Under the pieces are notes generated by a model, which worked only from the letters and a program-made list of their open reading frames with translations, made no database searches and was not told the DNA's origin. DNA of 55,706 nucleotides, the filler included, from Sphacelaria rigidula (Eukaryota): the NCBI GenBank assembly GCA_964200075.2. It is 6 parts of 6 records of this genome, joined end to end, with 100 filler letters (N's around TTAATTAATTAA, not from the genome) between each part and the next. Parts side by side here need not be neighbours in the genome. Positions count along the whole stretch, not along the records: positions 18,605 to 27,805 come from CAXNAA020009055.1; 5 more parts are not named here. One strand, written 5' to 3'. Of the stretch, positions 9,203-46,529 are shown in pieces; the stretch's first letter is position 1, and every line of letters starts with the position of its first letter. The position numbers and the translations under genes are program-made.

Positions 9203-9302
9203 NNNNNNNNNNNNNNNNNNNNNNNNNNNNNNNNNNNNNNNNNNNNTTAATTAATTAANNNNNNNNNNNNNNNNNNNNNNNNNNNNNNNNNNNNNNNNNN
9301 NN
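9203..9302. other. Artificial scaffold linker N44-TTAATTAATTAA-N44 (also 18505-18604, 27806-27905, 37107-37206, 46407-46506)
   Basis: Identical 100-bp spacer giving stops in all six frames; the flanked segments decrease in length from 9202 to 9200. Confidence 0.98.
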
Positions 9303-17358: not shown

Positions 17359-20300
17359 ATCTGTCAACAACGAAGTAAGGACTAGAGAGACGTATTATAG
17401 TAGTAGTAGTAAGTAAAACAACATAATAAATAATACCAAGCGAGATATATGTATATGTGAGGCCACCCCTTATAAGACACAGAAGCAGGGATCTGGAAAA
17501 AAAGTGCCTTTTTGGCGCTTTTACGTCGTTTTTCGCCGTAAAAGAGAGCTAAAGGCAGACTTTGACAGCTTCGAATGCCTTGCGGAACTCGTTCAGACGG
17601 TTCCACCACACCACCTGTGCGTTTCTCTGGTGGCCGCGGTGTTTTTCCAACCTTACATTTTTCTTCGAGAGAAATGCGCGATCTCCGAGAAAACGCAAGC
17701 TGAGCACGAAAAATACGGACACACACAGGAAAAACGCAAAGATCAGATGTGCTGGGACCGTCTGAACGAGTATACTGCAAGGCATTCGAAGGTGCCAAAA
17801 ATCCGCCTAGCTCTCTTTTAGAGCGTAACGATGTAGGAGCTGCAAAAAAGCACATTTATTTATAGATTTCTATTGCTTTCTGCCAGAAGGAGCGGCCTAA
17901 GGAAGACAAAACTATGTATTAGCTGGTCCAGGCTAAACACGGGTTTAAGCTCTCAATGCAGTATATCGACACAGACGAGTCGGGTCGTGATCCGCATAGT
18001 GTATTGATCGTCTAATCAACTCTGGACCATTTTTTTCTCGTTGATTAAAGGCTATGTCTAGAGGTTCCTATACCGAACAGACGCATGGTCCATACTAAAG
18101 TCTACGTGAAACCCCGTGCGATGTATAAAGCGGATGATGACGATTCTTGGTGTGGACATTCCCTGGAACACGGGGAAACGATCGGTACCCTCACCTTCAC
18201 CTAATTCGTCATGTATCTCAAGAAAAATATGGCGCACATAATATTTCATACAAAAATAAATATATTGCGAGCAAAGGCTCGAGAGCCTTAATGCGCTCAA
18301 TCTGGATTTCGCGTCTGAGTTTTCGAGAGTTGTACTTCGAAATTTGGCATAGAATGGCTAGGGCATAAAGAAAAAGAAACTTGAGCTTTTCACTTTGTAT
18401 TCTTCAGTTTCTTTTTCGTTTTATAGAGGACAGTGTTTTCGTGAGATTGAGAGTAGATGATACGATTGAGAGTGAAAAGCGGTCAATCAGTGAATGAATC
18501 GTTCNNNNNNNNNNNNNNNNNNNNNNNNNNNNNNNNNNNNNNNNNNNNTTAATTAATTAANNNNNNNNNNNNNNNNNNNNNNNNNNNNNNNNNNNNNNNN
18601 NNNNTTGCGTGCAAGAGAGAAATGCCACTTCAACCCCATATTTTGTATGAACCCCAAAATGTAAAATCGGCTGTTTGTTCTTGGCCAGACTTGACTGTTT
18701 CTTGCGCAAACGGTCGACATTCACAAACACCTCTATTTCTCGGGTACGTTGCGCACATTCGGCGTGTTTTGGTGTTGGCAGGGCAAATCCTCAATTATTT
18801 CCAAGGTCAAACTGCATGCACGTGGAAAAACGCAAGTGGGCCAAATCCTCCCCTCCGATAGTACAAAGCACCTCATCATCCCGAGGTCTTGTCAGAAGTC
18901 TATAATAAACAACGTTTTCGGGAGATTGAGAGTAGAGCGCTGATTGAGAGGGGCCTTGGTCATTCACTTTACCTTGGCCAATTTTTCATTCCTTGTGTGT
19001 TTTTCTTTGCCCCCATCACTAGCGGGTACTTACAGCTACACGTCGATATTATGCTCGGGGATATCAAGGGCCTCAGTGGTAAGCTGCTACAGAAAGCATA
19101 TCGAGCCTCTTGGAGGGGCATTTCGGAACTGAAATGAAATCATTCACAATTTGACCGCTCTCCACACTCAACCGTACCCTCCACTCTCAATCTCACGAAA
19201 ACAATGTCAATAGTACTCCTCTTGGGCGAGGAGCGTTGCGGAAGCTTCACCAAAGGCACCTCGCCGACATGTGTTTTTGCCCAATCACGAGACGAGGCCT
19301 AATGCCCTTCGATAGCATCAACACTTCTTTAGCGGGTTCCACCAACTGTGCACATCAACAGCGCTTAGCGAAGTCATTCACATGCCTCGACATGAAGGTG
19401 ATGGCTATCGCAACGACGTCGCTGTCGCTCAGCGCTGTGGGTATGCCGGCAGTTGGTGAAGGCCGCCGAAGAAAGTTTACACGCGGTCGTGGAGCCCGAG
19501 GTCGAAAAAAACAGGAATTGGTCAGTATAAGCTTCATGTCAGGGAAGCACTGTTCCGGGGTTGAACCTCATTTTTCCATTTTCAGGCTGACCCTCATCAT
19601 ACAAAATACGCTGTTTTATCATATTCAAGGGGATCTTTGACATTTTTGTGCATCACACAAATGAGAGAAAAAAAATCTCCTGCGTTAACCTTCCTCCGGT
19701 GTGACTGCGGCTGATGCGCGCACACATACCGAGAGGTGTAGACTGGTGTCCAGAACAGATGGGATGGCAACACACAACAAGCGCGCAAAATCGGTTGATC
19801 GTCTAGGAGACCCAGGTAGACGCGAAGAAGTTAATAGCACGTTCTGTAACGCTTGCTCATTAACGAGCGGGGCAAGAGAAGCTTGATCACTGGTCGCTGT
19901 CTCTGCCTCTACTAACCATAATCATAGGCACAATTTGCAGTCTGGGAGTCGGCCCGTTTCAAGTAAACACTGTCAACACCTTGACCCTCCCTTGCTCTTC
20001 GGTATCCATCCACTCAACACGAGAGGATCTGCCTGCATGCACTTGATGTCGAAATCCCGTCGTGGCAAAACGCATGATCTCATCAAGAGTTTACTTTCTC
20101 ACCGAGATTCACCAGTTACAACCTCGTCCGACGGTAGCACTCGACCAAAACACAGGTGCACGCCTCATTTACAACATGGCTCGAAACACAACCCTTCATG
20201 CTGGATTGGGTACGTGGCTATTGTATATACACGTATTTCCTCGACCAGCGCAACATCCCCCCCAAGTGCAGATCCTCAAGCGTACACCGTAGGCCTCTCT

Positions 20301-20522
20301 GGGCACAATGAACTGTACTTTATGTTGTACATTGATCTAGCCTGTCCTACTCTTCTTCCCGGAACCAGCTCCCCCCCCTCCGCCCACACGACCTAGCGCC
20401 TTCTTGGCTTCCCTCTCCGCCTCGGCGCTCATCTACCAATACGGGCAATAAGCAAGCAAGGTAATAGGAGCACGAGCAAAATCACAGTTAGGAACAGTAT
20501 TAGAATGGCGCCGAAAAAAAAA

Positions 20523-20667
20523 CACATCCTGGACGATGGACGATAGGTTACATTGTCTACACGTGTGGTGCGTACAGTATCGACTATTGCGTCTATTGAA
20601 ATAGGTGATATATTCCATACTGTGCGCAGTACACTTTTCGACCATGTGATACTTCGTCCAGGGTGTG
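20523..20667. mobile_element. hAT-type MITE, 145 bp (same family as 34619-34761)
   Basis: TIRs cacatcctggacga / tcgtccagggtgtg; internal gcgtacagtat.gactattgc.tctattg...ttccatactgtgcgcagt shared with the 34619 copy. Confidence 0.75.
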
Positions 20668-21725
20668 AAAGAAGAGAAGTAAAAAGTCACACCAAGAAGA
20701 AAAAAAACCAAGACGAGAGCTTAAGACACAAGCGCTGATCAGGGGTGCACAACACTCATCTAAACCCTTGCTGCCCAATAAGTGAGTCAGTACTTCAGGG
20801 CCTTTCGACGCGACGGTTCGCCCGCCCCAATAACTGCACGGCAGCGTACCCAATAATTCGATGGCGGTTGTACGAGAGCGTAAGTGCACACCTTCAAAGA
20901 GTGCGGAGTATCACGACAGCAACGAGGGTAATTGCCTGCCGGACCAGTCACCACATGCTGATCCTCCGCTCTATATCTTCGAGGGGTACGAAGTGCCTCG
21001 GGTTCATTATTTGTTCCCCCCGACGTGGTGCATGCGCACAATTTTACGCCAAGGGCTAGCTACTTCGTGTCCACAGAGGGATCGATCAAACGACTAAAAT
21101 GACCAGCTTGAAAGCATTCAGTACGAGTACGGCAGGTCGGTCACTTCTCCCGAACAGGGGCTTCACCGGAAGACAAGCCAATCGCTGCTCAGTCACGGCA
21201 AGCTTTCCGTATATTTGAGGGCAAGCGAACCGCACTCCTGGAACAGACCGTTTAGAGCATAGGGGCCAGCCACTACGGAGGGTTTTGCCACGAAAAATCC
21301 CCAGCATTCCAATATTTCGCAGTCGATTGAAATTTCGTCCGCACACCATCTGCAGCGAAAATATGTCCACAAAAAAGCGAACATATCTCCACACAAAAAA
21401 AAGGATAATACGAGAGCGATGCTGCGATAACCCCCTCCCAGAAAAGTAGCTGATTTGAAAAGGCAAGATCTACATGCAAAGCAAAATGAAAAAGAGCTGA
21501 GCACACCGATCAGCTCCTTACTCTCACGCTTGGCATCATCTTCGCCAATACCGCTCATATAAGGCGCCCCATGCAGTCTACAACCAGCTGTCATGCACTG
21601 TATGGCCGTTTTCTTCGAAACAGATTTGGGGCTGGTTTGGAGGGAGACTTCACGGCATCACTCCCCTGCCCTTAGCCCACCCCGTCCACGCTACTGTACC
21701 ACCGGTAAAGTACGCTCTTGCACAC

Positions 21726-21959
21726 CTTGCCCTCCTCTCCTCCCGGCCCGAGCATAGCCTCTGCCTCATTGTCCGCCCATATGCCTGCATCCTTGTCTTC
21801 ATCGTCCGAGTCATCGCTGTCCCTACCGCGCTTGCCCTTGGTCATTTTTGATGGCCTCCATCTGTCCTCTCCATCGTCTTCCTCCTCCTCTTCCTCCTCT
21901 TCCTCCTCATTAAACAACTGTTCTCTTTTCCGCTGTTCCTGTTTCTTTTGCCTCGCTAC
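21726..21959 (-). CDS. BUD31: BUD31-like gene, fourth visible exon: charged helical and acidic C-terminal extension (VARQKKQEQRKREQLFNEEEEEEEEEDDGED...EEGK)
   Basis: Polypyrimidine tract plus cag acceptor (tttcctttcccttgactggcag); phase 0, compatible with the preceding exon; 234 nt to an aag|gtgtgc donor, or read-through to the stop at 21672. Confidence 0.72.
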
Positions 21960-22702
21960 CTGCCAGTCAAGGGAAAGGAAAGCGATATCGACGGTAATGG
22001 AGGTAAGAGGTAAGGCTTGGGTCTAGGATCAGCGGGGGAAAAGGGGATGCATCAATTTGGTGACGCGTGCATCGACGACAAAGGTGGATCATAAGACAGT
22101 ACAGTAGATCCAACAATACATGTCATGTATTGGGAATATCAACTAAATGCTGAAATAACACGAAGAAACTCACTGTGTAGCCTCAGGGTTTTTGCGTCAC
22201 ACACATGTCATCCATGTACTTGGGCAGGCAGGGGAGATCAGGGTTGCTTCGTTGTTTTTGTTGCTCCCCACATTTAGCATTTTCCCAGAAATCTAGCGAT
22301 GATGGGCACAAAGCCATGGCACAAAAAGACAGAGAATCAAGAAAGAAAAAAAGGCGCCTACGAACATGAAAAACACAGCAGCGAAAATATTAAATATACG
22401 CAAAAATACACATACGGTTGGAAAAAAACAGATGAAAAAAATAAATCGTCCGTACAACAGTGTACGGGTCAGAATGGGCAACAAAATGGCCAACGAGGGG
22501 AATTACAGAGGTCGGCATACCGAACAAGTCAGGACAGGACAAGGGCAAGACAACGCAAGGCAGGGTAAGAGAAGCCAAGCATATCCATCACTGTGCATCA
22601 CTGTGCAGATCAGCACGTCCACGGTAGGTAAACCGAGCGTTTATTGGAATAGCAAGGCGAAGCGAGTAGGTTTCCGAACGGTAATGCCACCGTAAGACTT
22701 GC

Positions 22703-22837
22703 CTGGATTGCAGCGAGGTATTGCCCATACTTATTCCCGAATATGTTCTTGTTTCCCCCCGCGCCCGTGGCGCACCCGCGGCAGCCCGTGTTCACGTCTT
22801 CGACTACCGTGTCCGCCGAGAGGCATTGCTTCGGCAC
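22703..22837 (-). CDS. BUD31: BUD31-like gene, third visible exon (VPKQCLSADTVVEDVNTGCRGCATGAGGNKNIFGNKYGQYLAAIQ)
   Basis: cag acceptor; continues ICR|VPK and contains the G10-family GCRGC motif; 135 nt, phase 0; best donor is CAG|GCAAGT. Confidence 0.88.
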
Positions 22838-23716
22838 CTGGGAGCACAAGAGCACAAGCAAGAACAAAAAGCGACATTCCGTGGGTGGATAGATGTAGCG
22901 CAAAACAGATACTGTAGGAGAATAAGAATCCTGGGAAAGCATGACAGTGCTATAGTGTTCGTGCATACGCTCCAACTTTCGACGACTTCAGATCTTGCCG
23001 TGTGTATGTGTTCTCACTCCATTTATTCTGAGCGCCCGCACATTTCGGTGTATATGGGCACACCAGCCAGGGGTGATACACGAGGAGGGTCACACATGAT
23101 CTGAAGTATTGTGAACTGCTTCGGCCAAGCACTCCACTGGTTGCAGGAAATTACAACCAGTGACAGTTATCAGTTAAAAGTGGATAACTGGCTGCAAAGC
23201 CGCCCCGCGACTCTGCCAGTGCTGCCTGACAAGGCAACGCGGCGGAGTCGCGTAAAAGACCCCCTCGGCAGGTGAGGGGGCCCCACCGGAGGCGCGGTCG
23301 GAGACAAAAAAATCACACCATTTGGCTCCACATCTCCTCAAAATCGCGGTAAATTCTAGCCGCCTAGCGCAAGCAATTCGAGCACGTAATCGGTGCACAA
23401 TATATGTTAGTAAATATGCACATGTATGGGGGAAAAGGAAACATCACTGATTTTGGCGACGTGAATTGAAAAAACGAAGCGGTGAGACAGTAGTGCAGCA
23501 TACATAGGATTCCACGTGTACCACCCAAGCGCCAATAACTACTAGTAGCACGACAACTTGGTAACGTTATTGAGTATGACGACATCAGCCAGGAAAATTC
23601 AACAGAAATCTCGACTATTCGTCATGCTTCGGTATCACATTGATCGGGCACCTCTGAACGCTTGATGCCGACAAAATAAAGCAAAGTACACAACAACGCT
23701 ACGAAACGCAGTCTTA

Positions 23717-23871
23717 CACACGTCGGACAGATCATGATCCGTCTGAAATTCACCTATTTATTTTCAGTATACAAACTGATCCGAATCACTATTTTGTATT
23801 TTTTTATCAACGGACTCGAGAGTCTTCTTTGATTAGTTGTTTCAGACAGATCATGATCTGTCCGATGTGTG
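23717..23871. mobile_element. hAT-type MITE, 155 bp, in a BUD31-like intron
   Basis: About 32-bp TIRs cacacgtcggacagatcatgatccgtctgaaa / tttcagacagatcatgatctgtccgatgtgtg; 8-bp flanks cagtctta / cagtcttg. Confidence 0.85.
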
Positions 23872-24159
23872 CAGTCTTGCTGCACATTTCAGATCAGCTC
23901 AACAACTGTCCGTGCCCAATGTCTAATCCACTGTAATTCCAGCCTTATCACCAGTATCGTGCCGAATATTAGTGTCAATTGTTTACGATACTCTTACCCT
24001 TAAGTCCCCGAAAAAGAAGAAAACCACCTACTGCAAACGAATGAGGCGAGCACAGTCACCAGCATCTGTTGTGGCTGCCCCTGCGGTTTACTTGTACCCC
24101 TTGGCCCACTGAGTACGAGACGGCATTACCAGCGTTGGTCGTTGCCTTACTCTTTTTCA

Positions 24160-24350
24160 TGGCGTCAATGACGGGCCAGACGGTGTGCCAAAACAACACA
24201 GTCTCGAAATTCTCCACCCCGTACCTATTGCGCTTTTTTGCGACAAGTCCTGCCAGGGAGAATAGACGTTCTGACTGCATCGAGGTTGCCAGGATAGTAA
24301 GCACCCCGCGAGCAAGCTTGGCCACCAGCGGAAAAGCACGCTCAATCGTA
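24160..24350 (-). mobile_element. hAT transposase relic (C-terminal dimerisation domain) in a BUD31-like intron
   Basis: FPLVAKLARGVLTILATSMQSERLFSLAGLVAKKRNR matches the hATC pattern P.LA.LAR..L.IPATS..SERLFS.AG. Confidence 0.82.
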
Positions 24351-24926
24351 TTCACGTCTGGGTGTGTGCGCTGTGTGGTCATGTGCTCGGCTCTGTACCG
24401 GCATCCCCACGACATGCTTGATGGTACTCGACCATGAAGAGCACTCATTTGAGCACTTCCTTATCATAAACTCCGTCAGTTATGTTTACATTCATTACCC
24501 CATGTGAACGAGGATGCACGCGTAAAACGTCAATCAACGAATCAACCCGAGATTCTTCCGTTCCCACAAGACACATGTTTTCCCAAACTGGAAAATATTT
24601 GGCTTTTCTGCGGTTCTTCGGCCAAATCACTGAACGTCCTTGATATTTTGGATGAATGAAGGGGCTACATATATTCTCCACCGACAGTAGCTGTACTGCG
24701 GTCGGTTCGAAAGTGCCCGTAATCCCGAGGACTCTCGCGTCAGACATACTTGCTCAACACAAAAATACTGTGTGCGGAACAAATTGCGAGGACAACATTG
24801 AAGACAAAAAACTACTGTGATCTCTGATCCTCGTGAATATTGTCTAGAGAGACCACAAAAACAGAGCCCCAGGAACGTTGGAAACGTGCTCTTTACAACT
24901 GCTGTGGTTTTGGAACCTCCACCTAC

Positions 24927-25043
24927 CCTGCAGATGCTGACCGTGCCGAACTTGTAGTTCTTGGTGTTTATAACGTACGTGCTGCATAGCCGCTCGTATC
25001 CTGGCTTCTTCCACTTGGCCATGAGGGGTCCGTCCACCAGTTT
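24927..25043 (-). CDS. BUD31: BUD31-like gene, second visible exon (KLVDGPLMAKWKKPGYERLCSTYVINTKNYKFGTVSICR)
   Basis: gcag acceptor and gtaggt donor; 117 nt, phase 0/0; G10 signature LMAKWKKPGYE.LC. Confidence 0.93.
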
Positions 25044-25383
25044 CTGCGAGACAAAAAAACAACACAATTTACGTCAACGACCAACAGTCACAGAGTTACT
25101 CGTAACATCCTTGTGATCCGACGTGGCATCGCGACGGGTGACGGTGGTCGTTTTGGAAGGATATTTCCAAGTTCCAACTTGAACAAATGGTCCCGTAGAC
25201 AAGAAAGCGGTGTATACTACGCGAGCTTGGGGAGCATATCACCCCGCCATCCCTGATGGATCATGATACGGGCAACTCACGAGTGAATATATTGCAAGGG
25301 ACGGTCCAACAACGGACGCTGATTCGACGAACACGAACGAGAACCGCGCGATTCATGCGTACAATCTTGTCAGGTTTGCTCAC

Positions 25384-25532
25384 ATTTCGAATGCAGTACT
25401 CGAGGACTTCCTTGGAGATCATCTTGTAGACGTAGTGCATATCGTACACATATCGAGACCGCTGCCAGTTGATCTGGAACACCGGCCACATCGACTCCCC
25501 CTTGCGCTTACCCTCGTGCGGCTCGTTCACCT
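25384..25532 (-). CDS. BUD31: BUD31-like gene, first visible exon (VNEPHEGKRKGESMWPVFQINWQRSRYVYDMHYVYKMISKEVLEYCIRN); 5' exon(s) not found on this scaffold
   Basis: gcag acceptor and gtgagc donor; 149 nt; matches the G10/BUD31 pattern EPHEGKRK.E.LWP.F.I..Q.SRY.YD. Confidence 0.93.
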
Positions 25533-26943
25533 CTGCCCCGCGATAAGCAAGATATACACAAAGCGAGGGACGGCATCGTGGGTGTTGAGGTCAGTGTAAG
25601 CGCATAGAATGCTCATTATTCGACTGGGAGTCATATTGTTGATTGATTTGTCGTACATGAATTGATCTCCAAGGGATTCAGCCGTGGTCACGAGATCCCC
25701 GAGGTGAAAAAAATGGGAACATGCGCTGAAGGAAAAACACACACACACACAAACGGAGTGAACTGATATGAAAAAAAGAGAAATAGCAAATAAAAAAGAA
25801 GGGAAAAAAAAAAAACAGAGCCAAAACGAAACCGAAACAAAAGCAGAAAATCATGTTATTAATATAATAGTACAGATACTTCGCTGGCAATCAGGCGAGT
25901 GAACCCGGGGTGGGAGAGGGGGGGACGAGCTGGCCGTGTTCAGCGGTGCGGAGCATGTTCTACGACATTCGGAACGCGAAGCCACGAGGAAAACAAGCGG
26001 GCTATTACACCACCGGTACAATTCGGCATAATGCTTTATCACATTGGGTCGACTTGAACCGTCTCCCAGAGATGCCAGATTCTACCCTGATCTACCGACA
26101 AGTACGCTGTTCAAGCACACACAGCATTTACTGTTGCCCAGTATATTTGTTACTGTTGCTTGCCAAAAAAATTGCACATGACAGTTGAGGAGTCGCTGAT
26201 TGGAGCAAAACAAGTACAAAGTAGGGTAGAGAGGGTGCAGAAGTGGAGGGCGATGAAGTACTCGCTGATCGTACCACTGCATGTAGTCGCCGAATAGCAT
26301 AAGTAACTCTGTGCGGTTGTACAAAGTTTTGACAATGCTCTGTACAGTTATGGGTAGGAATGGGGGCCCTTGCAACCAAAACTCTACACGAAACCTAGAA
26401 TAAAAAATAACGCGGAGGAATAATGAACAGGTCAGTAGATGGTCGGACCTTTGCCGAGGCCCTCACGAACAGAACACATGCTTCCTCACTTATTAACTTG
26501 GTTTAGTATGGGAAGCTGTAGCACTGGAGATCGCGCGGTTCTCGACACAGGAGGGAAGCCGGCCCACGGCACTTGACAGCCCCCCGCACACACACAAGAT
26601 CTAGGGGAACTGGTCACACATTTTAGCTCAAGTCGCAACAGTGGACCAAAACCCCCCCACCAACAGCGGACAATACTTTATTCAGTATATTTGGGTTTTC
26701 TGCGACTCAGTCTCAGGCGCAAACGCAGAAAAGTAACTAAGTGAACTAGCTTGGGTGTGTGGGAAGCGCTCGCAAGAAACCGCAGTCCAATCCTTTGCTT
26801 CGTTGCCGAGTTATAAGCGTTGCGCGATCGGCACTTTTGGGCTGAGGATCATTAGCGTCTTTTGAGGTCGAAGATGGTGAATTAAAAAAAATTGGTGCGT
26901 ATATGTTTTTTCTTGCCGCAAGCAGGTTGTGACGACATGCAGT

Positions 26944-27008
26944 CTGCTTGCGTGCCACCAGGCGCTGCTTGCGTGCCACCAGGCGCTGCTTGCGTGCCAC
27001 CAGGCGCT
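26944..27008. repeat. 21-bp minisatellite, three copies (ctgcttgcgtgccaccaggcg)
   Basis: Three perfect tandem copies read directly. Confidence 0.95.
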
Positions 27009-28131
27009 AAAGGGCAATTTGCCCTCTCTACGGCGAGTATCCTACTAAGTGTCGAATTACAGAGGGAGAGTTCACAGATGAAAGACAAAGCTGGCGGCTG
27101 CTCTGTACCAGGGCTCCAGTGCAGAAGCCAAGGCGACGAGAGCACTAGTATGTGCACTGCCTTACATCTGGTGGCGACTGTGGTCATGTACATAGTAACT
27201 GTCTCTATACACTACAAATAATATAATAATGATATGCAAACTATGCGACGTTCGACAAGCTTCGTTTCGGGCTGCGTGTCTTTTTCTTCGGCTTAGCAGT
27301 GTGTGACGGCATTTCACTTTGTGACGTACCACCAGGTGCTGCTTCGTTCTGTACGGCTGTGCACAAAGGGCAACTTCGCCTTCCAACAGCAAGTACCTTT
27401 CATGTATTGAGTTGCGGAGAGCGAGGTCACACATGAACTTCGGCTGTTGTGTCTGAGGGTCCCAGCGGAGAAGCCAGGGCGCGAAAAGCGATTTTTATTC
27501 CAGACTACGCATTATATATACCAAGGTCGGTAGAGCCACGATACTTGAGGCGACTGCCTGCACACACTGAAGAGAATATTGTACATAAACCATGCGATTT
27601 GCGCCAACTTGCATCTTGTACCACACGTTATTTTTTGGCACCAATCACTGTCATGACATTTGCTTCGGTGGTGGTCCGCTATGTGCTGCTCTGTTCTGTG
27701 GGTATGTGCACAAAGGACAACTTCACGTATCATGAGCGAATACCCTTTTATGCCTTGACTTGTGAGGACAAGTTCACAGATAAAATACGACTGTCTTCTG
27801 GCAGANNNNNNNNNNNNNNNNNNNNNNNNNNNNNNNNNNNNNNNNNNNNTTAATTAATTAANNNNNNNNNNNNNNNNNNNNNNNNNNNNNNNNNNNNNNN
27901 NNNNNTACATCCTGCTAAGATTGTTCGGCCCGAAGCCTACTGATTATCTCGCATTTGGATGACAGCCTACAATGAGTTGCTTGAAGACACTGTGATTGTG
28001 ATTGTGGTGCCTAACTCCTTCCCAGACAGTGCCTAAACTCTCAATCAATCGGGCCGCAGGTTCTGAGCGCTGTAAAGATGTGGGAAACGATAAGGGCTTT
28101 GATCAAGTCATTTTCACTAGTGGAGGGTTTA

Positions 28132-36787: not shown

Positions 36788-37773
36788 TGTTGATGATGTG
36801 TTGATGATGTTGATGAGGTAGTCGATCAGCACCACCAAACTGAGCTTGTTACTTGCAACAGTTGCTTCAAAATGTGGTGCACTGTAGTACAAGTGCAAAG
36901 GGTGTTGTTGCGATTCGCGCTGCAGGAAGTCGAGAAATCACCCGGTTGTCTGGTGATCTTGTAGGATGTACCGCCCTTCCCTTTATTAACTTGGTGTGTC
37001 GCGGTGAGATACGGGTACCTACTTCTGGGGACGTAGGGAGAGGGAGGAGGAGGAGGGCGGGATGTACTCATGATCATGCATGCCATAGTCATCAGACCAT
37101 TGACCTNNNNNNNNNNNNNNNNNNNNNNNNNNNNNNNNNNNNNNNNNNNNTTAATTAATTAANNNNNNNNNNNNNNNNNNNNNNNNNNNNNNNNNNNNNN
37201 NNNNNNGTACTACTGTACACTGGCTTTTTCGCTTTTAAGAAAATCGTGCTCATTTTCCCAGGAAAATAAGAATGGAGCATTGAAGAAAATAAATGATGAT
37301 CATGCTCCCAGGAAAATAAGAAACCCAGCCTCAGGCCGATTTTTCAGTTTCTTACTTGCGGGCCGGTACTGTACCGTACCTTATTATATCCCTCAGTAGA
37401 AATGTGTATTGTGTCGTGTATTTCGCGGACGCCTTGGATGCTATCATACCACGCTGATTTTGATACTGGAAGTGATTGCGAAATATATTTCGAGGTTGCC
37501 GTCTCAGACAACAGAAATATACGTGGTAGTTACTAAATTGCGTGTATAGGCTGGATTGTTGTCATCGGCTAATGTGAGATAATCAATCAATCAATCAATC
37601 AATAGGTAGTGTCTATCTATTCTGACGGAGAACCCGGATCGTTCCGTGAATAACTGATATCAATGTTGGCAATTCAAGTCCGGAAGTTTTTGGGTTATTG
37701 TCAGTTGTAACCATCCAAACGGATAAGCTTCGTTGGTGCACGCAATTTCTCCAGGCTTTTCGGTTACCATGAG

Positions 37774-44860: not shown

Positions 44861-46529
44861 TGAGAACCAGCAATGGATAGATGCTTCAACTATCGCAATG
44901 TTGGACGTCGAGACGACGGATGCGCATGATTGATGTCTTCGCGTCTATCGCGGGCAAGACCCAAAATACTGTCTTTATCGTGAACGTGTAGGTAGCCAGC
45001 AGAGGAACCTACTTAAACAGCTGTTGCTATAGGCCAGAAATGATGTAAAATACAGCTGGCTTGCTTCCACCTCGGAAAGTGAAGGCGCACGATGTGGTGG
45101 CGAAGAACGATGAAACAGCAGCTGCATCTGTTGCGAGTGATGTGCAGTATATCAAACATTCAAAATCCCCAACTGCACCTCGTGTTATTTTCCATCTCAG
45201 AGTACAAAATACCCTGCACTATGCGTGCACTACTGTGCGAGGTGTGTACGCATTGAATTATTCGTGTTCGAGATCTCGTATTGCTTCCGAAAGAGGAGAC
45301 CACTAGGCTCGACTTTCCATTGCATTGAGATGGCCTCAATTAGTACCATAGTGATGCCTGCTATGTGTTTTTTGTCTGAGACTTTCGGGGAAATATATTT
45401 GAATGCAGGTCTGGAAGGCTGACCTTGTGTCATTAATAAAACAAAAGTTTGCTGCTGCATCATTCACCGCAGCATCGATACAGCCGTGTGTGTAGGCTGC
45501 GAATAATTAGAGGCTGGATTGGGAACGAAAGGGGCATGCCAACGGTGAGTGGGCAGAGTATGATAGCGGCCGCTGAATTGAAATCTCGACATCGAGTAAC
45601 CATGAAACAGCTTACACAGCACGAATCATGTGCGATGCCGGAGAGCGTTGACGGACGACCGTTGTAATCCTATCTACAAAGCCTACTGTACGGCTTACAA
45701 AAAGATCGCACGCTGTATGTACACTTTTGAGGAATGATTATTGGTAACACTCTTGTAATGCGAGGAACTTCATCGTAGCCACACTTGTGTTGTTGAAACA
45801 CTGAAGCCAGCATCTAGAAAATATGTTCTATCCTCAACCACATCCTCAACAGCGATTGCTGTAGAAAGAGACGGCGACCAACGGTCAGTCGGTGAGATAC
45901 GGTGCATAACATCCCCTTCGAGCTTGTCCGTCTCGTCATCTCAAATGACTCGGTGCCAACTTAACACCGGGTAGGGTTGTACACCATCCGCTGGTCAAGG
46001 GTCAAGGGTTGGTGTTTTATTAGTAAAGGTTGATTTGATCATTAATAATAGTCAAATAAACTTTCTGCTGATTATTCGATTACTCCGGAGTATATTGAAC
46101 GATCATGATTGGTTGATAATTTTTGGAAATGAAAGAGGCGTTTGCGCCGTGTAACGCCAGTTTTTGACACTGGGCCCACAGAGAGGGGCAAGAACTACGA
46201 GCCGGGCCAACCTAGAGGCGTCATGGAAGTCTGCAGGCGAATGCGCCGGCCAATATTCAGAGTTGGGCCCTGAAATTTGGTATGGACAACGCATAGGGCA
46301 TAATCAAAAATCAGAAGGAAGCACGGTTAGGACAAATCATCACGAATCAAAATCACCATATTCACGATTTCTTCGGCCGGATTGCCCAAAAGGGAGAAAA
46401 AAGTTGNNNNNNNNNNNNNNNNNNNNNNNNNNNNNNNNNNNNNNNNNNNNTTAATTAATTAANNNNNNNNNNNNNNNNNNNNNNNNNNNNNNNNNNNNNN
46501 NNNNNNCCGACCCCCGCCAGTTTGGCCAA

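Follow-up and report, generated by a model that had tools for sequence, protein, structure and literature searches.

A BUD31/G10 splicing factor gene of the brown alga Sphacelaria rigidula belongs to a four-cysteine class with a probable single zinc site

The gene described here, on the minus strand of a 55,706-nucleotide stretch of Sphacelaria rigidula DNA (the window, a string of unrelated contigs), is a normal brown-algal gene for the pre-mRNA splicing factor BUD31/G10, ordinary for its lineage. Judged by sequence, its product belongs to what we define in this analysis as the four-cysteine BUD31 class: cysteines C1, C5, C8 and C9 of the nine canonical ones are kept, and S, V/A, S, D/E and T/S occupy the other positions. 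The class is large and apparently undescribed; we found no description of it in the literature. Taken together, we consider it fairly probable (about 0.78) that this is an ordinary BUD31 gene of a class in which the Zn3Cys9 cluster is reduced to a probable single Cys4 zinc site, an extension is added, and the fold and the spliceosomal role are kept.

The family assignment is based on profile matches. The Pfam BUD31 profile (PF01125, cut-off 23.8 bits) matches exon 2 with an E value of 2e-16 (60.4 bits, profile positions 35-82 of 146) and exon 3 with 1.8e-12 (47.6 bits, positions 83-121); the match to exon 4 is weak and below the cut-off (E 0.16, 12.1 bits). By these matches the protein is a member of the BUD31/G10 family, and tblastn finds one BUD31 locus in the window. 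In the same searches, exons 2-4 are 100% identical to P0069, a public protein model named Sphacelaria rigidula that lacks the N-terminal part and whose exons are identical to those of the window, and 82-88% identical to P0004, a close relative of the window protein that we used as the query and for modelling. A phmmer search of the PDB with P0004 yields BUD31 chains only, with eight distinct sequences, and the ESM Atlas gives family-level matches only. For a trypanosomatid G10 (9if7), the alignment reaches cysteine 1 only.

The gene has six exons, five of which (exons 2-6) are inside the window, and the interval originally noted, 22703..25532, comprises exons 2-4 only. The features, read on the minus strand, are as follows.

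25533..27805, minus strand: 3' part of intron 1, extending to the contig end and containing no exon 1
25384..25532, minus strand: exon 2, (K)VNEPHEGKRKGESMWPVFQINWQRSRYVYDMHYVYKMISKEVLEYCIRN, encoding part of the helical domain and flanked by acceptor cag (25535-25533) and donor gtgagc (from 25383; minus-strand reading); from Pfam BUD31, the joint 25043/25384 and tblastn matches to P0004, P0014 and P0069
25044..25383, minus strand: intron 2, GT-AG, 340 nt; from contig joints
24927..25043, minus strand: exon 3, KLVDGPLMAKWKKPGYERLCSTYVINTKNYKFGTVSICR; acceptor cag, donor gtaggt; from Pfam BUD31, PDB alignments and joints
22838..24926, minus strand: intron 3, GT-AG, 2089 nt; from the joint 22835/24925 with a +2 cut
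22703..22837, minus strand: exon 4, VPKQCLSADTVVEDVNTGCRGCATGAGGNKNIFGNKYGQYLAAIQ; acceptor ag at 22839-22838; from alignment to P0004 and PDB chains
21960..22702, minus strand: intron 4, GC-AG, donor GCAAGT; from the joint 21958/22702 with four ambiguous letters
21726..21959, minus strand: exon 5, a basic stretch and then an acidic tail, VARQKKQEQRKRE...EEEEE...WADNEAEAMLGPGGEEGK; from tblastn and contig joints
20433..21725, minus strand: intron 5, GT-AG, 1293 nt; from contig joints
19193..20432, minus strand: exon 6, last 31 codons with the stop (20432-20337) and a 3' untranslated region reaching at least 19193; from the X1 contig piece 19193-20432

The translation of exons 2-4, ...GYERLCSTYVINTKNYKFGTVSICR followed by VPKQCLSADTVVEDVNTGCRGC..., is identical to the peptide of the earlier note, whose frame and splice sites are reproduced by the exon translation and the contig joints. 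Intron 4 is taken as GC-AG because only the +1 cut gives GC..AG together with the reading AAIQ/VARQKK, which is also present in P0004. The class-specific extension motif begins within exon 4, and the basic start of exon 5 forms a helix in the predicted structure. Intron 3 carries transposon debris, with a hAT dimerisation domain at 24056-24460 (Pfam, E 6.3e-07) and a 155-nt element with 32-nt inverted ends at 23717-23871. Exon 1 lies outside the window, since the contig stops at 27805 and the filler, N44-TTAATTAATTAA-N44, runs from 27806. Throughout the window, tblastn gives no match to exon 1 and a degenerate pattern gives none either; an HMM of 31-residue N-termini, run in six frames, has its best match at 47887-47792 (E 0.05), with stops inside.

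An intron-free, spliced form of the gene exists. When contigs of sequencing runs were compared with 18605-27805, those of runs X1-X3, whose type is given as 'RNA?' (a guess, the runs not being recorded as RNA), joined 25384/25043, 24927/22837, 22703/21959 and 21726/20432, whereas the DNA run X5 contained none of these exon joints. The X1 and X2 contigs have a loose end at 25532, the reverse complement of which reads ...NALENELRE plus one base; this base completes a K codon with the AG at 25532-25531. With exon 1 lying beyond the window, the completeness of this gene copy rests on that loose end. One may suspect a decaying or silent copy, either a pseudogene or an annotation artefact, from the absence of exon 1, the transposon remains in intron 3 and the truncated N-terminus of P0069. 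However, all five exons are open and 82-100% identical to relatives, the intron-free contigs of three runs join the exons and run on into exon 1 sequence, and the missing exon is explained by the contig end at 27805. We therefore regard decay as next to negligible, and the gene as intact, in agreement with the earlier note.

Alignment to the solved BUD31 chains places C/S/V/S/C/D/T/C/C of the window protein beneath the nine canonical cysteines, at the following codons.

24986-24984, minus strand: C1, exon 3
24983-24981, minus strand: C2 position, S, exon 3
24974-24972, minus strand: C3 position, V, exon 3
24938-24936, minus strand: C4 position, S, exon 3
24932-24930, minus strand: C5, exon 3
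22825-22823, minus strand: extra, non-canonical cysteine in PKQC, exon 4
22798-22796, minus strand: C6 position, D, exon 4
22789-22787, minus strand: C7 position, T, exon 4
22783-22781, minus strand: C8, exon 4
22774-22772, minus strand: C9, exon 4

This alignment confirms the earlier count of four remaining cysteines out of nine, with S, V, S, D and T in place of 2, 3, 4, 6 and 7. The canonical Zn3Cys9 cluster requires nine cysteines, three of them bridging, and the window protein lacks this set, bridging position 3 being a valine. The extra PKQC cysteine is shared by 8 of 93 variant relatives.

The four cysteines are strongly conserved. We aligned 235 domains, consisting of 27 with nine cysteines, 196 variants with all nine columns filled, and 12 gappy rows that were set aside. 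C1 and C5 are kept in all 196 variants and C8 and C9 in 184, while C2, C3, C4, C6 and C7 are kept in 6, 1, 1, 14 and 7, respectively. The same picture emerges from 93 diverse full-length variants, in which C1, C5, C8 and C9 are retained in 93, 93, 92 and 93 sequences and every other domain column has Cys or His in at most 29. The earlier note had named a lack of conservation in relatives as a ground for giving up its proposal, and both alignments point the other way. The window pattern, CSVSCDTCC, is the commonest one (99 of the 235 aligned domains), and the extension motif occurs in 173 of the 196 variants and in none of the 27 canonical proteins; its stramenopile sub-type, NIFGNKYGQ.LA.IQ, is present in exon 4 of the window. 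Named members of the class come from brown algae, Tribonema, Chrysoparadoxa, pelagophytes, Rhizochromulina, oomycetes and Hondaea and, with other tails, from Chlorella, Chlamydomonas, Diacronema, Pavlovales, Pyropia, Balamuthia, Stygamoeba and Trichosphaerium. Of 126 rows aligned from the 150 top-ranking cluster representatives, 73 are of the variant and 53 of the canonical type. Every named stramenopile protein retrieved has the four-cysteine pattern, which, judged by these sequences, stramenopiles and several further lineages have as their standard form.

This distribution bears on the interpretation offered earlier, that the gene is a zinc-sparing or neofunctionalised paralogue. Such a protein would be private to the lineage and stand beside a canonical Zn3Cys9 BUD31, with a zinc-saving or new function in the manner of the C-minus ribosomal proteins. 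The loss of five ligands in an intact frame is in keeping with it, and a helical-domain tree of 48 rows separates variant from canonical proteins cleanly by one split (SH-aLRT 100), as expected from an old duplication. Yet the pattern is common to every named stramenopile protein retrieved, oomycetes as well as brown algae, and to green, red and haptophyte algae and some amoebae; the tree groups within stramenopiles follow taxonomy; four ligands are retained rather than none; and, according to the available text of the structural paper, the Chlamydomonas variant is the protein found in the spliceosome. No nine-cysteine BUD31 named from stramenopiles appeared in the protein searches, the 27 canonical rows included, which is weak evidence against a second copy since these searches covered proteins and not whole genomes. 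As to zinc sparing, nothing ties the pattern to zinc supply, and the soil and freshwater organisms among the members speak against a link to zinc-poor seawater. A paralogue of this kind is accordingly improbable in our view, and the paralogue interpretation gives way to that of an ordinary gene of the lineage.

To place the variant in a structural context, we used an AF2 model of P0004, not of the window protein itself, built from the alignment of the 93 variant sequences. Its pLDDT is 83-93 over residues 91-190, and the C-terminal extension is predicted to be ordered (pLDDT 83-94); an earlier model from a mixed alignment, with pLDDT 47-68 in the zinc domain, is superseded by it. On human 5xjc_N the model superimposes with 1.3 A over 141 residues (Z 18.9), and on 8xi2_N with 2.2 A over 159 residues, model residues 2-166 lying on chain residues 4-179. 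Its 14 best structural matches consist of BUD31 chains without exception (Z 13-19.5). As far as can be judged from P0004, the variant would thus have a helical bundle and a C-terminal cysteine domain. The closeness of the superposition is due in part to AF2 having seen canonical BUD31 structures.

The topology of the canonical cluster suggests which metal the four cysteines could hold. In yeast Bud31p the three metals form a cyclic cluster in which three of the cysteines are bridging (PMC4471582); these are Cys104, Cys108 and Cys122 according to the accessible part of PMC7614390; from the alignment ranges, these are canonical positions 1, 3 and 5. Because both belong to the three bridging ligands of a cyclic cluster, cysteines 1 and 5 share exactly one metal. 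It also follows, with the bridging residues so reported, that one of the five lost cysteines is a bridging ligand and the other four are terminal, which is exactly the number of ligands exclusive to the other two metals. Conservation suggests that cysteines 8 and 9 are the two terminal ligands of the metal that 1 and 5 share. Of the earlier proposal that 1, 5, 8 and 9 are the ligands of one zinc ion, the part concerning 1 and 5 thus agrees with the printed assignments as far as they were available, while that concerning 8 and 9 is indicated by conservation. Since cysteines 1 and 5 share one metal and four cysteines are conserved, a plain Zn(Cys)4 site is likely, and a single predicted site of this kind is the likely mechanism.

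The domain could instead be free of metal. In that case the four cysteines would have been kept for some other purpose, such as packing, redox sensing or a disulfide, and only the extension would stabilise the fold. The zinc site is, after all, predicted from sequence and topology, the extension is ordered in the model and aligns to 8xi2_N residues up to 179, and the text available to us of the Chlamydomonas spliceosome paper (PMC11833078) contains no comment on the cysteines or zinc of Bud31 that we could find. On the other hand, the lineages differ in nearly everything in the loop except for exactly four cysteines, which are invariant, and two former bridging ligands plus a CxxC knuckle would make up one complete site of the parent cluster, as its bridging residues are given in part of the literature. 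A nuclear protein resides in a reducing compartment, which speaks against a disulfide. We consider a metal-free domain unlikely, although less so than a paralogue.

Our preferred reading, a single zinc site, can be put as follows. In place of the Zn3Cys9 cluster there are four invariant cysteines at positions 1, 5, 8 and 9, which most likely bind one zinc in a tetrahedral Cys4 site (one zinc, four ligands), presumably the site that bridging cysteines 1 and 5 share in the canonical cluster. Ordinary side chains (S, V/A, S, D/E and T/S) would occupy the space of the other two metals. A C-terminal extension predicted to be ordered, here GAGGNKNIFGNKYGQYLAAIQ and then a basic helix, appears to have been added and might have a compensating role. 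The BUD31 fold and the role in the NTC-related part of the spliceosome would be kept, the latter by relation to the Chlamydomonas member, and the window gene would be the only BUD31 of the organism.

The evolutionary origin of the class is less clear. For the helical domain alone, a tree constrained to group all 40 variants has a likelihood 29.7 log units better than that of the free quick tree (p-AU 0.893), so that a single origin of the variants is allowed by these sequences. A broad tree of 69 rows by 99 columns is poorly resolved, with three changes of state, and both one and several origins fit it. We tentatively propose, at somewhat less than even odds, two old BUD31 classes: a three-zinc class, found in land plants, opisthokonts, a metamonad and Ceratiomyxa, and a (probably) one-zinc class that arose once and is now found patchily in stramenopiles, haptophytes, green and red algae and some Amoebozoa. 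If true, either an early eukaryote had two BUD31 genes that were then lost reciprocally, or a transfer took place between lineages, and the 'absolutely conserved' Zn3Cys9 cluster would be unnecessary for spliceosome function.

The textbook example of a Zn3Cys9 cluster in a protein is Bud31p, and its nine cysteines have been described as its absolutely or most conserved part (PMC4471582), likewise in the accessible portions of PMC7614390 and PMC12610034. A class without five of the nine, with a member in a solved spliceosome, suggests that two of the three metals may be dispensable for fold and function, on the predicted zinc number. The class can be viewed as a natural experiment in which a metal cluster is replaced by ordinary packing and an added tail. 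In sum, it is a modestly interesting BUD31 variant, and the window gene is in all likelihood no special paralogue, with nothing that links it to zinc economy.

Compared with canonical BUD31/Bud31p/Cwf14/G10 (2MY1, 5XJC, 3JB9, 8RO0), the variant is of the same Pfam family, PF01125, and P0004 is 46-53% identical to the animal proteins. Both have the basic motif AKWKKPGYE, the CRVP motif and, by the P0004 model (Z 17-19.5, rmsd 1.3-2.1 A), the two-part fold of a helical bundle and an irregular cysteine domain. In contrast, five of the nine cysteines are gone, one bridging cysteine among them, and therefore the Zn3Cys9 cluster cannot form. There are also about 130 extra C-terminal residues (ordered extension, basic helix and acidic tail), whereas canonical proteins stop a few residues past the last cysteine.

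A known counterpart in a solved spliceosome is Bud31 of Chlamydomonas reinhardtii ('G10 protein', 233 aa), chain N of 8xi2, which the available text of PMC11833078 gives as Bud31 of the NTR complex, a subunit of the C* spliceosome. It retains these four cysteines (Cys102, Cys120, Cys141 and Cys144 of the chain, from the alignment), carries S, A, S, D and T elsewhere (C..S..A..S.C....D..T.C..C) and is longer than canonical proteins, its modelled residues up to 179 aligning to the start of the extension. The identity is only 42-44%, however, and its tail, GDGKFGG..., belongs to the 'GGPxWW' sub-type seen in green, red and haptophyte algae, not NIFGNKYGQYLA.IQ.

The bacterial C-minus ribosomal proteins are likewise a case in which a conserved part of an RNA machine has lost metal ligands but kept its function. 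Those zinc-ribbon paralogues are second gene copies, induced by zinc starvation, and have lost all ligands. Here, by comparison, no second copy is known from the proteins covered, the form is fixed across whole phyla, and four invariant cysteines stay.

The BUD31/G10 splicing-factor gene lies on the minus strand. Exons 2 to 4 were delimited by reading this strand together with stop-to-stop translation, and exons 5 and 6 by tblastn with full-length relatives:

25532-25384, minus strand, exon 2 (acceptor cag, donor gtgagc)
25043-24927, minus strand, exon 3 (acceptor cag, donor gtaggt)
22837-22703, minus strand, exon 4 (acceptor ag, GC donor gcaagt)
21959-21726, minus strand, exon 5
20432-20337, minus strand, coding part of exon 6, stop included

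The exon 2-4 limits claimed in the earlier note match this reading exactly, and the joined exons read ...GYERLCSTYVINTKNYKFGTVSICR|VPKQCLSADTVVEDVNTGCRGC... as quoted there. Three public sequencing runs from this organism, guessed to be RNA though none is recorded as such, contain contigs that join the exons without introns at 25384/25043, 24927/22837, 22703/21959 and 21726/20432; none of these joints occurs in the DNA run of the organism. Past 25532 the spliced contigs continue into sequence from outside the window that encodes ...NALENELRE and completes the lysine codon, which is how exon 1 ends in all relatives. The absence of exon 1 is due to the make-up of the window, a series of distinct contigs: linkers of the form N44-TTAATTAATTAA-N44 recur every ~9301 bases (9203-9302, 18505-18604, 27806-27905, 37107-37206 and 46407-46506) and separate 9201-base contigs, so that DNA outside the gene's own contig, 18605-27805, is not its genomic context. 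The claim of an intact frame and splice sites is borne out, and a pseudogene reading is rejected, since the exons are spliced in the contigs and the loss of exon 1 is explained. As far as it is visible, the gene is intact.

Intron 4 (21960-22702) is of the GC-AG type with donor GCAAGT, and the joint 22703/21959 reads AAIQ|VARQKK in the spliced contigs, as in the close full-length relative P0004. The public model P0069, recorded under the name Sphacelaria rigidula, agrees completely with the window across shared exons, reads AAIQATRQKK at this junction and begins at an internal Met; it appears to be mis-spliced and truncated. In run X2, contig record 11 (2747 nt; 22702-25043) carries ~2.2 kb 5' of exon 2 by record coordinates, far beyond what exon 1 needs, which may reflect intron retention, a long leader or chimeric assembly of the contig.

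Intron 3 (2089 nt) contains an open frame at 24056-24460 on the minus strand that matches the hAT transposase C-terminal dimerisation domain (PF05699, E 6.3e-07) and is a transposon remnant. A 155-nt element in the same intron, at 23717-23871, with inverted ends of 32 nt that are 94% complementary, looks like a multi-copy MITE-like repeat: word depths there reach thousands in the DNA run, and some contigs have the inner part swapped for other sequence (joint 23715/23899).

The Pfam BUD31 profile is matched by exon 2 (E 2e-16) and exon 3 (E 1.8e-12), covering positions 35-121 of 146, and by the cysteine-poor exon 4 at E 0.16 only. Alignment to solved BUD31 chains places C, S, V, S, C, D, T, C and C under the nine canonical cysteines, so the earlier count of four kept and five replaced by S, V, S, D and T is correct. 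A further, non-canonical cysteine (PKQC, 22825-22823), which that count did not include, is part of the loop joining cysteines 5 and 8; its column holds Cys in 8 of 93 diverse variants and Y in most brown algae.

The four-cysteine pattern is conserved in relatives across stramenopiles. All 82 proteins retrieved with exon 2 as query were BUD31; those with names came from brown algae, oomycetes and one pelagophyte. With the P0004 zinc domain and its class-specific C-terminal extension as query, 729 of 732 candidates matched, newly reaching Chrysoparadoxa, Tribonema, Heterococcus, Rhizochromulina, Chrysophaeum and a record named Symbiodinium. Among the 235 aligned domains, nine cysteines are present in 27; another 196 are variants without gaps in the nine columns, and the last 12, which were gappy, were left out of the cysteine counts. 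Cysteines 1 and 5 are present in 196/196 variants and cysteines 8 and 9 in 184/196, with the exceptions apparently due to gene models that are truncated or read through; cysteines 2, 3, 4, 6 and 7 occur in 6, 1, 1, 14 and 7. Among the 93 diverse variants, cysteines 1, 5, 8 and 9 are kept in 93, 93, 92 and 93, and the remaining domain columns hold Cys or His in at most 29.

A sub-group (P0020, P0022, P0048, P0051, P0053, P0068, P0079 and others, including that of the pelagophyte Aureoumbra) also keeps cysteine 6 (..ECPTTGCRGC), giving five of nine, and rare sequences retain cysteine 2, 3, 4 or 7; these are possibly intermediates or reversions.

An exhaustive phmmer search yielded 1344 relatives among 1.84 billion cluster representatives; the best 150 relatives gave 126 aligned rows, 73 variant and 53 of canonical type (34 complete). 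Named canonical proteins come from fungi, an animal, land plants, Blattamonas, 'Rmarinus' and the amoebozoan Ceratiomyxa. Variant tails are as follows:

NIFGNKYGQ.LA.IQ: stramenopiles, among them the labyrinthulid Hondaea
...GGP(I/V)WW: Chlorella, Diacronema, Pavlovales, Pyropia
...PYGW: Balamuthia, Trichosphaerium

The Chlamydomonas tail in the PDB, GDGKFGG, is related to the second type; the variant of the amoebozoan Stygamoeba matches none of the three. Alignment of the window protein to a trypanosomatid 'G10 protein' (PDB 9if7 chain LL, 326 aa) stops at cysteine 1, and this chain may be another divergent cysteine domain; the accessible portion of the 9if7 paper names BUD31 once and does not discuss the zinc domain.

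In yeast Bud31p, nine cysteines, three of them bridging, hold three metals in a ring (PMC4471582), the bridging residues being Cys104, Cys108 and Cys122 according to the available part of PMC7614390. Yeast residues 86-123 align to exon 3 residues 2-39 with equal spans, which identifies these as cysteines 1, 3 and 5. Each metal in a ring of this kind is bound by two bridging ligands and two terminal ones, and a given bridging pair has exactly one metal in common. One bridging cysteine and four terminal ones are gone from the variant, matching the set exclusive to the two metals touched by cysteine 3; two former bridging cysteines remain, together with a CxxC pair. These four most likely make up one complete Zn(Cys)4 site. 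Of the earlier claim that the retained cysteines are the ligands of one metal, the part concerning cysteines 1 and 5 follows from the published bridging residues and the alignment; cysteines 8 and 9 are probably the terminal ligands of the metal that these share, a role supported by the conservation of all four in the 93 variants. Nothing was found in support of the proposed zinc sparing: oomycetes, soil amoebae and freshwater algae belong to the class, and on present evidence the four-cysteine form is fixed, not regulated.

The BUD31 fold is kept in the predicted structure of the variant. Modelled by AF2 from the alignment of the 93 variants, P0004 is predicted with confidence over domain and extension (pLDDT 83-93 at residues 91-170), with a helix at 160-188; when a mixed alignment was used, confidence in the zinc domain was low. 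The model superposes on human BUD31 at 1.3 A over 141 residues and on Chlamydomonas reinhardtii Bud31 (8xi2_N) at 2.2 A over 159 residues, up to model residue 166, although AF2 memory of canonical structures may be partly behind this agreement. In the model, the start of the extension matches ordered residues in the Chlamydomonas spliceosome.

The gene might instead be a paralogue, a second BUD31 copy in S. rigidula, as the earlier note proposed. However, no canonical stramenopile-named protein was among the database matches to the exon 2, canonical and P0004-domain queries, the stramenopile part of the tree agrees with taxonomy, and the helical domain is conserved as in any BUD31. Moreover, the four-cysteine Chlamydomonas protein is the Bud31 subunit of a purified C* spliceosome (8xi2 chain N; PMC11833078, as far as available). 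The paralogue claim is thus not upheld. A helical-domain tree with the cysteine columns left out splits 28 variants from 20 canonical proteins at one branch (SH-aLRT 100). A 69-row quick tree with more lineages is unresolved, with 3 changes of state; constraining its 40 variants together gives a likelihood 29.7 log units above the quick tree (p-AU 0.893). These sequence data allow, rather than demonstrate, a single origin of the variants.

The nine cysteines have been termed absolutely conserved in NMR work (PMC4471582; likewise in the accessible text of PMC7614390), and a 2025 survey of 128 sequences, in its available part, singles out the cluster as the most strongly conserved part (PMC12610034). 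The consulted portion of the Chlamydomonas structure paper (PMC11833078) is silent on the Bud31 cysteines, and full-text literature searches found no description of a four-cysteine BUD31 class. The sequences of this class and one structure are already public; it is not a new system, and the window gene is an ordinary member of it.
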